DNA of 32,000 nt, from contig NZ_CP010546.1 of NCBI RefSeq assembly GCF_001272835.1, positions 60,001 to 92,000 on the forward strand, in the 5' to 3' direction. The notes below the pieces were generated by a model. That model searched no databases. It was not told the origin of the DNA and worked only from the letters and a program-made list of their open reading frames with translations. Positions 10,375-15,214 of the stretch are shown piece by piece (the stretch's first letter is position 1; each line of letters opens with the position of its first letter). The translations under genes were made by a program, and so were the position numbers. Source of the stretch: Mycoplasmoides pneumoniae FH (GTDB lineage: Bacteria; Bacillota_I; Bacilli_A; Mycoplasmatales; Mycoplasmoidaceae).

Positions 10375-12057
10375 TTGAACGAACGTTTTTTAATTGAAAT
10401 CGAAGGTTTAAACAAAACTTTCGATGATGGTTTTGTATCAGTACGTGATATTAACCTCAAAATTAAGAAGGGCGAATTTATTACGATTCTCGGTCCTTCT
10501 GGTTGTGGCAAAACAACTACTCTTAGGTTGTTAGCAGGTTTTGAAGATCCTACTTATGGCAAGATCAAAGTTAATGGTCTTGACATTAAAGACTTGCCCA
10601 TTCATAAGCGTCCCTTTGCTACTGTCTTCCAAGACTATGCCTTGTTTTCACACTTAACTGTGTACAAGAACATTGCTTATGGCTTGAAGGCAATGTACAC
10701 AAAGCTGGATCCGATTGATAAGCTAGTGGAACAATACCACCAAAGCTTACTGGACAAGCAACACCGCTTGCACAAGAGGATTGAACGCTTAGAAAAAAGT
10801 AATGCTAATCCACAACTGTTAGAACAACTTAAACAAACGGTTGTCGTTCAACAAAAACAGTTTAAACAACAAACAGAGACTTTTAAACAAAAGGAAAATG
10901 CTCGACGTGATGCCATTCAACAACGCTTGGTGCAACTTACCAAGGAATGGGAAAGCTTATCAAAGCAGAAGTTGCAACAATTAGAAGCGGAGAAAAAGTT
11001 GTTAGATAAAAAGTTTGAACAAACTGAGCGCAAATACCAAAAGGATGCTTGGATGGCAACCCACAGTGAAATGCGTTTAAAGCAGTTCAAACAAGAGGTG
11101 TTAGCTTTAAAACAACTAATTAAAACTAAGTTCAAACAAAATGAACCAGTTGACAAGTTGCAGTTAAAGCTGCAAACCTTAAAGCAAAAGTATGCTGCTA
11201 AAAGACAAATTGATAAGGAATACGATAAGTTGGTCTTAGCCTACAACAAGAAGGACTATTGAACTTCATACTGGGAAACCTATTCTTTACAACAACAAGA
11301 AGCCTTTGAAAAGCGTTACTTATCGCGCAAACTCACTAAACAAGAACAACACCAAAAGGTGTGTGCTGTAATTGAGTTAGTTGGTTTAAAGGGTAACGAG
11401 GACAAACTCCCAGAAGAATTGTCTGGGGGAATGAAGCAACGGGTAGCCTTAGCGCGTTCCTTGGTAATTGAACCAGACATTCTCTTATTGGATGAACCCT
11501 TGTCTGCTTTAGATGCTAAGGTACGTAAAAACTTGCAAAAGGAATTGCAAAAGATTCACCAACAAAGTGGTTTAACCTTTATCTTAGTTACTCACGACCA
11601 GGAAGAAGCCTTGGTCTTGTCCAACCGCATTGTGGTAATGAATGAGGGTAACATTCTCCAAGTTGGTAGTCCGGCTGATATTTACGATTCACCCAAAACC
11701 GAGTGGATTGCTAACTTCATTGGTCAAGCCAATATCTTTAAGGGTACTTACCTAGGTGACCTTAAGATTAAACTGCACAGCGGTGAAGTGATTAAAACTG
11801 ATGTGGACAATAACTATGTGGTTGGTAAGGAATACAAAATCCTAATTCGTCCCGAAGACTTTGACATTGTGCCCAAAAACAAAGGCTTCTTTAATGTTCG
11901 GGTAATTGATAAAACCTACAAAGGATTACTCTGAAAGATTACTACTAAGTTAGTTGATGACACCATAGTAGATCTAGAGAGTGTCAACGACATTGAGGTT
12001 GACAAAACCTTTGGGGTCACCTTTGATCCGATTGATGTTCACCTAATGGAGGTATAG
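10375..12057 (+). CDS. potA: Spermidine/putrescine-type ABC transporter ATP-binding protein with a large internal coiled-coil insertion
   Basis: The start is TTG at 10375; a TAA at 10363-10365 closes the frame upstream. Motifs present are Walker [11 protein letters not shown]-loop VFQDYALF, signature LSGGMKQR and Walker [12 protein letters not shown]. Track ORFs 10375..11262 and 11359..11934 are joined through TGA codons. The stop is TAG at 12055-12057, giving 560 aa. Confidence 0.92.
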
Positions 12058-12058
12058 G

Positions 12059-12919
12059 ATGAAACTATCGAAAAAATACCTCTTAGCTGTACCATTCTTT
12101 GTTTTAATGGTCATCTTCTTTGTAGTACCAATGGCATGGATTATTGTTAGTGGACTCCAAAATGAAAACGGTGCAAGTATAACGGAAAAGTACCAACCCT
12201 TAGTTGGTGGTTATTCTTTCTTTCAGAGTTTTTGAACTAGTCTGTGAACGGCGACTGTGACAGTACTAGTAGCCTTACTGGTTGCCTTTCCCTTTTGTTA
12301 CTTTTTATCACAAAGTAAAAACAAGGTATTCCGCAGTTTTGTGATTGCCTTAGCTACTGCTCCCATATGGAGTAGTTTTCTCATTAAGTTAATTGGGTTA
12401 AAAACACTGTTGGACTTAGTTTTGGGGTTAGCGTTGAACCGGGTGGGTGATAATAACCTCACCTTTGGTAGTGGTTATACCTTGATTGGGATGATCTACC
12501 TGTTCACCCCCTTCATGTTTTTACCACTTTACAACAACTTTTGTATCTTACCGAAAAACTTAATCTTAGCTAGTCAAGATTTGGGTTACAACTGGATTAC
12601 GAGTTTTATTAAGGTAGTTATTCCCTTTTCTAAAACTGCCATTCTGTCAGGGATTGCGTTAACTTTCTTTCCGTCTTTAACCTCGGTAGCGATTGCCCAG
12701 TTCTTGGACAACTCGAATCAAAATAACACCTTAGGTAACTATGTCTTTACTTTAGGTAACAATGGTTATGACAGTGCGATTGAGCGCGGCCGTGCTTCTG
12801 GTGCCATTATTATTGCGGCTTTAATTACCTTTGCCTTTTACTTTGTGGTGATCTTTGCTCCAAGAATAGTGCGCTTAATCCAGACTAAGTGTTTGGAATA
12901 CAGGAGGGTTAATGTTTAA
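12059..12919 (+). CDS. potB: ABC transporter permease (spermidine/putrescine type)
   Basis: The ATG at 12059 lies 1 nt after the potA stop. The protein has multiple TM segments and the EAA-loop [21 protein letters not shown]. Two TGA codons are read through near 12233-12247. The length is 286 aa. Confidence 0.9.
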
Positions 12920-13772
12920 GATGAAAAGCTGTAAGTTATGACTACGGGGAAGTTTCTTTGTCATTGTCCTTGTTCTCATCTACCTCCCTTTAATAATAGT
13001 TGTCTTAGTTAGTTTTAACGGTTCTTCGACTAGGGGTAACATTGTCTTAGACTTTGGTAATGTTTTAAACCCTAACCCGGATGCCAAGTCAGCATATCTA
13101 AGATTAGGGGAAGCGGACTTTGCCATCCCTTTACTCAACTCTGTCATTATTGGCTTAATTACGGTCATTGTCTCGATCCCGATTGCCATCATGACTGCCT
13201 TTGCTTTATTGCGATCCAGGCAATGGCTCAATAAAACAGTCTTTGGGATTGCTAACTTTTCTCTAGCAACTCCCGATATTATTACCGGGATATCGCTAGT
13301 GTTGTTATTTGCCAACACCTGGTTGAGCTTTAACCAACAGTTAGGTTTCTTTACTATTATTAGTTCCCACATCTCCTTTTCGGTGCCTTATGCCTTGGTG
13401 TTAATTTACCCAAAGATGCAAAAGTTAAACCGTAACTTAATCCTAGCGAGTCAGGATTTGGGTTACTCACCCATTGCTACCTTCTTTCACATTACCTTAC
13501 CTTACTTACTACCGAGTATCTTGTCAGCCATTCTAGTAGTGTTTGCCACGAGCTTTGATGACTATGTGATTACTTCCTTAGTTCAAGGTTCAGTTAAAAC
13601 AGTCGCCAGTGAGCTCTATTCCTTTAGAAAGGGGATTAAGGCCTGAGCTATTGCCTTTGGTGCCATTTTAATCTTGGTCAGCATTCTAGCTGTCTTGCTA
13701 GTAACACTGCACAAGTACCTACGCTTTAAACATAAAGAAATGCTCCGTGTTAAACAATGAAAAAACAGTTAA
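12912..13772 (+). CDS. potC: ABC transporter permease (second permease, potC/potI type)
   Basis: The ATG at 12912 overlaps the potB stop; an alternative ATG lies at 12921. The EAA-loop is [24 protein letters not shown] codons at 13644 and 13758 are read through to TAA at 13770-13772. Confidence 0.87.
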
Positions 13773-15214
13773 AGTATTGGTTTAGTCTAATGGGACTAAC
13801 CATGTCAGTTGGGTTAACTGCTTGTAGTTCCAACCAGTTTGTGTTTGCTAACTTTGAGTCGTATGTGTCGCCCTTACTTTTAGAAAGGGCAGAAGCCAAG
13901 CAACCAATGACCTTTCTTACTTATCCTACTAACGAAAAGTTAATTAACGGATTTGCTAACAATACCTATACGGTAGCAGTGGCCTCGAGTTATGCTGTGA
14001 GTGAACTGCAGCAACAAGGCCACTTACTACCAATTGATTGAGCTAAATTCAATTTAAAGAAAACCCAAAATGGTAGTAACCAAGCCACCATTCAAAACAA
14101 AGAGGATGCCAAAGAATTATTTACCAAAGAAATAGGCGACATTAGTGGTGAACTTTTAAACTGGGGTGTGCCCTACTTTTTACAAGACCTCGTGTTTGTT
14201 TACCGGGGCGAAAAGATTCAAGAACTTGAAGGTCAAGATGTTACTTGATCAACGATTATTAAAGCTATTGTTAATCACAAAGACCGCTTTAACAACAACC
14301 GTTTAGCCTTAATTGATGATGCTAGAACAATCTTTTCCTTAGCGAACGTCGTGCACCATGAGGTTAAGAATACCACGGTAGATGTTAATCCTACAGGTAG
14401 CACCTTAAACTACTTTGGCAACGTTTACGAAAGTTTTGCAAATTTAGGTCTAAAACGTGATAACCTCAACACGCTCTTTGTCAATTCGGACTCCAACATT
14501 ATTATTAATGAATTAGCTAATGGCAGAAGACAAGGTGGCATTGTTTACAATGGTGATGCCGTATATGCCGCTTTGGGCGGTGATCTCCGCGATGAAATTA
14601 ATGAGAATAACTTGCCCAACGGCGATAACTTCCACATTGTGCAACCGAAACACTCGCCTGTGGCCCTAGACTTTCTCATTATTAACCAGCAACAAACTCA
14701 CTTTAGAGATGCTGCACACCAGTTAATTTACCAGTTGGCCTTAGAAGGCGCTGATCAAACAGCAGAAGAATTATTAAAAACTGATGAAGAGAAAGGTACC
14801 AGTGATGAGGACTATTACACTTATGGTGCAATGCAGAATTTTAGTTACGTTAACTATGTTTCGCCTTTAAAGAATATTTCTGATGAAACCACTGGGATTG
14901 TGTTTAAGGAAAACAAACAAGCTGATACTAAGCGAGTTGTCAAACAACAAAGTCAATCAGAACAACAATCTGAATCAGCAGAAAAGGAAGAAACGGAACA
15001 AGATGATTTCTACACTGCTACTCTCAAAAGTTTGTTGAAAGCGGACAGTTTAGATGACAAAGCTAAGAAGTTAGTAGACACAATTAAAAAGACTTACAAG
15101 ATCAAAAAAGCCGACAATATTAATTGGGCTAACTTAATCGAGAAACCAATTACCCCATTACAAAGGAGTAATTTAACATTATCGTGGCTTGACTTTAAGC
15201 AACGCTTTTGATAA
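13757..15214 (+). CDS. Lipoprotein, PotD-like periplasmic-binding-protein candidate, with a Q/E-rich low-complexity segment near the C-terminus
   Basis: The signal peptide with lipobox is [23 protein letters not shown]. The gene occupies the position of the fourth gene of the pot operon. Track ORFs 13757..14041 and 14351..15211 share frame 2. TGA at 15209 is followed by TAA at 15212-15214, giving 485 aa. The assignment to PotD rests on position and size, not on motifs I can verify. Confidence 0.75.

Follow-up and report, generated by a model that had tools for sequence, protein, structure and literature searches.

Why does the ATPase subunit of a solute importer carry a long extra segment in the middle of its ATP-binding cassette (ABC) domain? 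The question is raised by potA of Mycoplasmoides pneumoniae FH, which lies in a stretch of 32,000 nucleotides (here called the window) that spans positions 60,001 to 92,000 of contig NZ_CP010546.1, a genome of a single contig of 817,207 bp. An earlier reading of the same letters without database searches, the sequence-only reading, had described the segment as an in-frame coiled-coil insertion built on the design principle of SMC and Rad50. The explanation that we hold to be probable, though by no means secure, is that the insert is a real, selected, lineage-specific folded arm on PotA, for which the role of a lever or brace can be inferred.

We identified the open reading frame (ORF) as M. 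pneumoniae potA (MPN055) from its M. genitalium ortholog, which has 559 amino acids (aa) and 74% identity, and from its position relative to the published M129 gene table (PMC4332154), in which MPN055 potA lies at 70404-72086, compared with 70375-72057 in the present genome. Outside the insert, PotA is an ordinary, catalytically complete importer ATPase of the PotA/CysA/MalK type, encoded in an operon of potA, potB, potC and a lipoprotein gene. All of its catalytic motifs (Walker A, Q-loop, signature, Walker B with the catalytic Glu, and H-loop) are present and invariant among orthologs: GPSGCGKT at aa 40-47, VFQDYALF at aa 84-91, LSGGMKQR at aa 349-356, LLLDEP at aa 370 and THD at aa 406. The protein has a single Pfam ABC_tran domain, stretched across aa 24-376, and a weak C-terminal match to Pfam TOBE_2 (E 0.0034, 17.9 bits against a curated cutoff of 21). 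Foldseek searches of the PDB aligned it over its full length to PotA, CysA, FbpC and MalK, with target-normalised template modelling scores mostly of 0.74-0.91 among the top 32 matches. Homology and gene context predict that PotA belongs to a polyamine (spermidine/putrescine) importer. Since the insert splits the profile match, the whole-protein scores fall under the curated NCBIfam cutoffs for PotA (387.7 against 550 for NF043075, 325.2 against 482 for NF006987 and 307.9 against 355.6 for TIGR01187), and the PhnT2 and FbpC profiles score close to the PotA profiles on this protein.

The insert interrupts a short exposed loop that joins helices one and two of the helical subdomain, equivalent to about residues 120-126 of E. 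coli PotA. The NCBIfam models of PotA, CysA, MalK and UgpC match the protein in two stretches, profile positions up to about 101 on the N-terminal part and positions 102-340 on aa 318-559. When aligned with the structure of E. coli PotA (8zx1_A), aa 6-110 correspond to residues 17-120 and aa 327-532 to residues 126-339. Profile and PDB alignments thus agree with the sequence-only reading that the insert lies between the Q-loop and the signature motif, where the coiled coils of Rad50 and SMC leave their heads; the split profile matches and the intact ORF likewise confirm the interval that it gave, 10699-11322, which is exactly aa 109-316, as in frame and translated. The spacing from Walker A to LSGG is 309 residues in M. 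pneumoniae PotA compared with 98 in eight insert-free mollicute PotAs. The inserted residues (aa 109-317) include 35 Lys, 31 Gln, 28 Leu and 19 Glu, with three Pro and neither Gly nor Cys, and the arm as a whole (aa 108-316) has a net charge of +16. TGA-encoded tryptophans, in the plural, had been claimed for the insert; only W296 lies inside it, and the other such codon, W520, lies outside. A pseudogene scar, an intein and a gene fusion were each considered and rejected, since the reading frame is unbroken, two families conserve the arm and no homolog occurs elsewhere.

We analyzed selection on the arm. The ratio of nonsynonymous to synonymous substitution rates (dN/dS) was taken from species pairs with unsaturated synonymous sites; the M. 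pneumoniae and M. genitalium pair was saturated and was therefore dropped. The dN/dS values were 0.06-0.3 for the arm and 0.03-0.13 for the core, and purifying selection maintains the arm. M. pneumoniae and M. genitalium share 54% identity over the 209 aa of the arm with a single insertion or deletion (indel), compared with 86-90% in the catalytic parts and 34% in an extension at aa 118-181. Conservation declines from base to tip, the majority fraction being 0.62 in the proximal returning helix, equal to that of the flanking canonical sequence, and 0.25 at the tip. The most conserved motif of the arm, DYWxSYWETYP, lies at the base, and its Y299 and W300 are invariant.

The arm is widespread in the lineage. 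All 24 other genomes searched in the Mycoplasmoidaceae have Walker A to LSGG gaps of 201-309 residues or reading frames of 452-594 aa; the named members bearing the arm include M. genitalium, M. gallisepticum, M. pirum, M. alvi, M. testudinis and Ureaplasma species. It is also found in Malacoplasma penetrans, M. iowae and M. girerdii and in the hemoplasmas M. haemofelis and M. parvum. Metamycoplasma canadense has an arm of about 90 residues that keeps the base motif (D.DF.YSYWENY...LTRKIT), and 49 of the 61 Metamycoplasmataceae genomes sampled have an ortholog of this 460-aa short-arm form, near full length in all but three (one in two pieces, two partial). Across lineages the homologous arm spans 90-215 aa. 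Each of the 11 other Mycoplasmoides species aligned has an arm of exactly 145 aa, and those of M. genitalium and M. pneumoniae reach 208-209 aa. The Ureaplasma and Malacoplasma lineages fall between, at 151-184 aa, and the hemoplasmas, together with one other family member, have about 101-105 aa. No arm was found in Mesoplasma or in seven other families of the order, where the Walker A to LSGG gap is the canonical 98-111.

In a maximum-likelihood tree built after the insert columns had been removed, all 27 insert-bearers fall to the same side of a branch whose Shimodaira-Hasegawa-like approximate likelihood ratio test (SH-aLRT) value is 97. Because the insert-bearers group in this way, the arm was most likely gained once, before the split of the pneumoniae and hominis groups, and was later lengthened and shortened, mostly at its tip. 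An arm-only profile searched against 1.84 billion representative proteins gave 19 matches; those in which ABC motifs or the motif of the arm can be seen are whole or fragmentary PotAs bearing this insert, and no other family was recognisable. The arm has no Pfam family or PDB relative, the PDB giving only chance-level coiled-coil matches. The 50 Foldseek matches listed for the whole protein, with E. coli PotA as the best, consist, apart from a few CFTR NBD2 chains, of importer ATPases of about 300-390 aa, and none of the solved importer ATPases among them has an arm, as the sequence-only reading had supposed. That reading had also named, as an outcome that would refute it, a segment that is a common and already characterised feature of the subfamily. 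The alignment of orthologs shows it to be common; no paper describing a PotA arm was found in full-text searches of the literature. The arm is a lineage-specific, selected, uncharacterised appendage on PotA.

What is its structure? An AlphaFold2 (AF2) model of PotA, built on a 20-ortholog alignment, had a mean predicted local distance difference test score (pLDDT) of 89.3 and a predicted template modelling score (pTM) of 0.75, and the insert was its most confident part, with pLDDT of 86-95. The helices in the arm are 114-141, 146-221 (76 residues), 225-229, 235-254 and 260-315. Strands 108-110 and 317-319 flank them and may be read as a beta-bridge that closes the base of the arm. The arm is modelled as a folded, all-helical appendage, and not as the disordered linker that the sequence-only reading had named as the outcome contrary to its own. 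A crude heptad a/d score of the insert gave z = 2.2, a value reached in 2 of 200 shuffles, and a hydrophobic period of 3.5-3.65 was significant in helices 114-141 and 146-221 and absent in 260-315. Since the heptad regularity is only moderate, "helical arm" is a safer label than "canonical coiled coil". A helical-wheel reading suggests that Y295, W296, Y299, W300 and Y303 share one helix face at the base.

The indels among orthologs indicate how the helices may be arranged. In Metamycoplasma and the hemoplasmas, where the arm is minimal, the chain turns back near aa 222-234 and roughly aa 228-280 are missing; in Ureaplasma and Malacoplasma about 35 additional residues separate aa 253 from aa 254. 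Judged by helix lengths and indel positions, a proximal hairpin would be formed by aa 182-221 with aa 281-316, and a distal hairpin of aa 235-254 with aa 260-280 would be stacked on it, which would place the tip at aa 254-259. M. pneumoniae and M. genitalium alone would have a third hairpin (114-141 with 146-181), pointing the other way along the 76-residue helix. The resulting shape would be a T-shaped outrigger that reaches about 100 Å on one side and about 45 Å on the other. AWMATHSEM, previously taken for a possible hinge, does coincide with a helix break in the AF2 model; the indels put the tip farther on, and AWMATHSEM would then be an elbow in the outgoing strand. Internal duplication was tried as the origin of the M. 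pneumoniae and M. genitalium extension and was rejected (protein z = 0.6, DNA z = 2.1). In Ca. Malacoplasma girerdii and six other loci of the Ureaplasma/Malacoplasma lineage, the extra segment of about 35 residues at the tip is more hydrophobic and aromatic, e.g. FLNYFKSWF, LKRFLHKITKLF. Unlike the K/E/Q-rich rest of the arm, it may be a distinct tip module. The features of the locus are collected in Table 1.

Table 1. Features of the potA locus and of the other importer ATPases with inserts. Positions are those of the window unless marked as contig positions. NBD, nucleotide-binding domain.
Feature	Size and detail	Position	Strand	Evidence
potA (MPN055-type), ABC importer ATPase	560 aa, TTG start, genetic code 4	10375..12057	+	ORF translation, Pfam, NCBIfam
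NBD, first half	Walker A (aa 40-47) to Q-loop (aa 84-91)	10492..10647	+	motifs in translation; columns invariant in 20-ortholog alignment
Inserted helical arm	aa 108-316, about 209 residues	10696..11322	+	split profile matches, AF2
Extension, M. pneumoniae and M. genitalium only	about 64 aa (aa 118-181)	10726..10917	+	absent from all other orthologs aligned
Elbow, break in outgoing strand	aa 222-234, family motif W..EN.EMR..Q	11038..11076	+	AF2 helix break, consensus
Inferred arm tip	aa 254-259 (QNEPVD)	11134..11151	+	AF2 break 255-259, indels, low conservation
Aromatic base motif DYWTSYWETY	aa 294-303; Y299 and W300 invariant; W296 encoded by TGA	11254..11283	+	translation, alignment
NBD, second half	helical-subdomain helix RKLTKQE, signature LSGGM (aa 349-353), Walker B LLLDEP, H-loop THD	11326..11721	+	translation, profiles, alignment
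C-terminal beta-rich regulatory (TOBE-like) domain	aa ~450-560	11722..12054	+	weak Pfam TOBE_2, AF2 beta strands, full-length Foldseek alignment
potB and potC permease genes, BPD_transp_1 family	286 aa each, frames overlapping by 8 nt	12059..13772	+	ORFs, Pfam
MG045-family lipoprotein, presumed substrate-binding subunit		13757..15214	+	Pfam PF02030, E 2.5e-264
UgpC-like/MalK-type ATPase (MPN134-type)	586 aa, insert about 207 aa	contig 172532-174292, outside window		motif scan, family profile
OppD	423 aa, insert about 50 aa	contig 266575-270361 (with OppF), outside window		motif scan, family profile
OppF	851 aa, insert about 540 aa	contig 266575-270361 (with OppD), outside window		motif scan, family profile

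PotA is not the only importer ATPase of this genome with such an insert. A whole-genome scan for ABC motifs found three more with widened spacing, UgpC, OppD and OppF, and normal spacing in the nine other transporter-type ABC domains that it detected. In UgpC, OppD and OppF alike the insert follows helix one of the helical subdomain, in the loop that bears the arm in PotA. Within the genus the UgpC insert is conserved, M. genitalium and the M. gallisepticum group included. Homology between the PotA and UgpC arms was considered and rejected (BLASTP E 0.35, hhalign probability 0.3%). The AF2 model of UgpC was built on a 7-sequence alignment and had a poor core (pLDDT 68.5), so that only the secondary structure of its arm was used; the helices of the insert are 113-137, 142-218 (77 residues), 223-274 and 277-311, with arm pLDDT of 86-94. 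The two arms therefore have nearly the same predicted helix pattern, with spine helices of 76 and 77 residues. The NCBIfam models of the mycoides-clade OppD and OppF (MMSYN1_0167 and MMSYN1_0168) have 561 and 649 positions, which shows that the Opp inserts extend past the clades having the PotA arm. Independent inserts at one loop in UgpC, OppD and OppF are thus a general habit of mollicute importers. The statement that an arm is not expected in a solute importer has to be withdrawn for these bacteria, where it is lineage-wide in PotA and where unrelated inserts at the same loop occur in the other three.

How could the arm act? We tentatively suggest, as a possibility that we would not put higher, a lever or brace that tunes the ATPase cycle. 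The arm would be fixed rigidly through its conserved aromatic base to the helical subdomain, which rotates on ATP binding and grips the coupling helices of the permease, and in this position it could tune the ATPase cycle of PotA as a lever or a brace. It may contact the C-terminal regulatory domain of the partner subunit, the cytoplasmic face of the permease or the membrane surface; it would not serve DNA handling or long-range bridging of the SMC/Rad50 kind. In MalK, the surface beside this loop, together with the regulatory domain of the partner, is the docking site of the inhibitor EIIAGlc. The rotation of the helical subdomain against the RecA-like core on ATP binding, and its hold on the permease coupling helices, belong to the established mechanism of ABC transporters (for PotABC, PMC11414716); the cryogenic electron microscopy paper on PotABC does not discuss this loop of the helical subdomain. 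Given that movement and the docking surface of MalK, a lever or brace is the most economical reading of the arm.

Several points weigh against a folded arm that acts as a lever or brace. AF2 often gives K/E/Q-rich segments confident long helices, whether paired or unpaired. The heptad periodicity is modest, with none in the returning helix, and the hairpin pairing and the T shape come solely from helix lengths and indel positions. In Lluch-Senar 2015 (PMC4332154), potA, ugpC and oppF of M. pneumoniae are scored essential, as are the M. genitalium orthologs, and PotA was detected by mass spectrometry; the essentiality scores cover the whole potA gene and not the arm. The net charge of the arm is not conserved (+16 in M. 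pneumoniae, +20 in M. genitalium and -2 to +14 elsewhere), which argues against one shared electrostatic partner. In addition, the arm-less PotA of the Mesoplasma type works, so transport as such needs no arm.

It could be proposed that the arm has no role of its own. On this account, AT-rich, drift-prone genomes added K/E/Q-rich helix to a permissive loop, largely neutrally, and the helix was kept because its removal disturbs folding. The occurrence of unrelated inserts at the same loop of four different ATPases would fit such growth, as would a length that ranges over 90-215 aa with both gains and losses, a poorly conserved tip, an extension just 34% identical between M. pneumoniae and M. 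genitalium, and the arm-less PotAs of sister families. However, the dN/dS of the arm is 0.06-0.3, the invariant aromatics and a common elbow motif persist in two families, a 145-aa arm is fixed across 11 species, and the M. pneumoniae and M. genitalium arms differ by one indel only. Moreover, the smallest genomes, which shed dispensable sequence, keep the arm. We regard largely neutral growth as unlikely.

On the other hand, the arm may be a docking platform that recruits a cytosolic partner (an enzyme, a regulator, or a cytoskeletal or ribosomal element) or ties transporters together, and so adds a function in a reduced genome. The modelled arm would offer a long, exposed and rigid surface, PotA and UgpC of the same cell bear arms alike in size and helix pattern, and the M. 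pneumoniae and M. genitalium arms are strongly basic. By analogy, the arm of ABC-F proteins touches the ribosome, and the M-domain of ClpB binds DnaK; contacts of this kind might be imagined for PotA. Yet the tip and the outer parts, where a binding surface would be expected, are the least conserved, the charge varies among orthologs, and the PotA and UgpC arms have no sequence in common; no interaction data were found, and one supplement of an in-cell cross-linking preprint does not mention PotA. We consider a docking platform quite unlikely. More speculative, and a little more doubtful again, is the idea that the arms of PotA, UgpC, OppD and OppF are convergent parts of one cell-level system in wall-less bacteria, in which the outriggers of the helical subdomains would couple binding-protein-dependent importers mechanically or in their regulation. 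Such importers might be linked with one another, with the inner face of the membrane or with a shared cytosolic partner, so that the ATPase would be gated by something other than substrate. The near-identical helix patterns of PotA and UgpC would then reflect a shared geometric requirement.

The SMC/Rad50-like design, in which each ATPase head would send out a long antiparallel coiled coil, the two joining at their tips or linking objects far apart, and so couple ATP-driven head engagement to a remote site, is very improbable: the insertion between the Q-loop and the signature motif is the part of the earlier comparison that stands, and some orthologs have weak precomputed matches to SMC_N (PF02463), but the strands have about 40-76 residues, a hinge domain, a CxxC hook and a conserved apex are absent from an insert without Cys whose tip is its most variable part, in length as well, PotA is an importer ATPase complete in a single chain, with a TOBE-like tail and adjoining permease genes, and the PotA of the window has no Pfam match to SMC_N at E <= 0.1.

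The reading of a selected helical arm with a possible lever or brace role bears on several questions. In an ABC ATPase it is the helical subdomain that holds the permease and shifts when ATP binds, and this location is mechanistically sensitive. A selected, rigid appendage of 90-215 residues at this site would have no structural or functional precedent among solved importers, and the transporter that carries it is essential in the minimal bacteria that have been studied best. For several mollicute importer ATPases, the homologs in other organisms are far shorter; should the PotA arm indeed regulate or brace the transport cycle, this would help to explain the extra segments in proteins of reduced genomes. 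Neither human ABC proteins nor other bacteria have the arm, so that it is a lineage-specific marker. There is also a consequence for annotation. The insert pushes these proteins under the NCBI cutoffs for the PotA name, and this is probably why most RefSeq orthologs carry only the name "ABC transporter ATP-binding protein". The potA sequence has been public since the 1990s, annotated only generically.

Two further observations concern the expression of potA. The TTG start is also apparent at the aligned N-terminus in 16 of 20 orthologs across the family, and conservation of so weak a start codon in an essential transporter gene may reflect translational tuning. In the supplementary table of Lluch-Senar 2015 (PMC4332154), an antisense RNA, ncMPN230, is listed on the minus strand at M129 positions 71625-72547 (about 11600-12520 of the window), where it overlaps the 3' end of potA and potB.

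How does PotA of M. pneumoniae compare with known systems? It shares its catalytic motifs and its NBD and C-terminal folds with E. coli PotA (PotABC and PotD-PotABC; 8y5f, 8zx1; PMC11414716), CysA (1z47) and MalK-type ATPases, with Foldseek E values of 1e-31 to 1e-26 and target-normalised template modelling scores of 0.75-0.91 against these structures. An operon with two BPD_transp_1 permeases is also common to M. pneumoniae potA and the E. coli PotABC-type systems. In contrast, these ATPases have 340-390 aa, and about five residues stand at the site of the 209 in M. pneumoniae PotA; an arm is absent from all the solved relatives.

Rad50 and SMC resemble PotA in the topological exit site from the ABC head and in antiparallel helices, as proposed here for the arm. 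However, their arms are 5-10 times longer, with strands of 300-500 residues, and end in a conserved dimerising hinge or zinc hook, whereas the tip of the PotA arm is unconserved and hookless. A further comparison is with the ABC-F proteins. Boel et al. are said to have described, in 2014, the arm of EttA as an alpha-helical hairpin inserted in the helical subdomain of ABC1. The arms of ABC-F and PotA are alike as helical hairpins that emerge from the ABC helical subdomain between the Q-loop and the signature, and at about 45 aa and about 90 aa, respectively, the ABC-F arm and the short Metamycoplasma arm are in roughly the same size class. On the other hand, ABC-F proteins are soluble, have two tandem ABC domains and act on the ribosome, while PotA has one ABC domain and is the subunit of a membrane importer with permease genes adjacent. 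Arm-profile, Pfam and PDB searches found no sequence relationship between the PotA arm and ABC-F.

In ClpB/Hsp104 a coiled-coil insert of an ATPase domain, the M-domain, both controls the motor and recruits a partner, and it offers a functional precedent for a lever or brace; it is of the AAA+ and not the ABC fold, has no homology to the PotA arm and gave only a weak, chance-level PDB match. The inserts of mollicute OppD, OppF and UgpC differ from the PotA arm in their unrelated sequences and in their lengths of about 50 to 540 aa, and the Opp inserts reach the mycoides clade, where PotA is armless. Nevertheless, like the PotA arm, they occupy the same loop, are helical, K/E-rich, lineage-specific and uncharacterised, and belong to essential importers.

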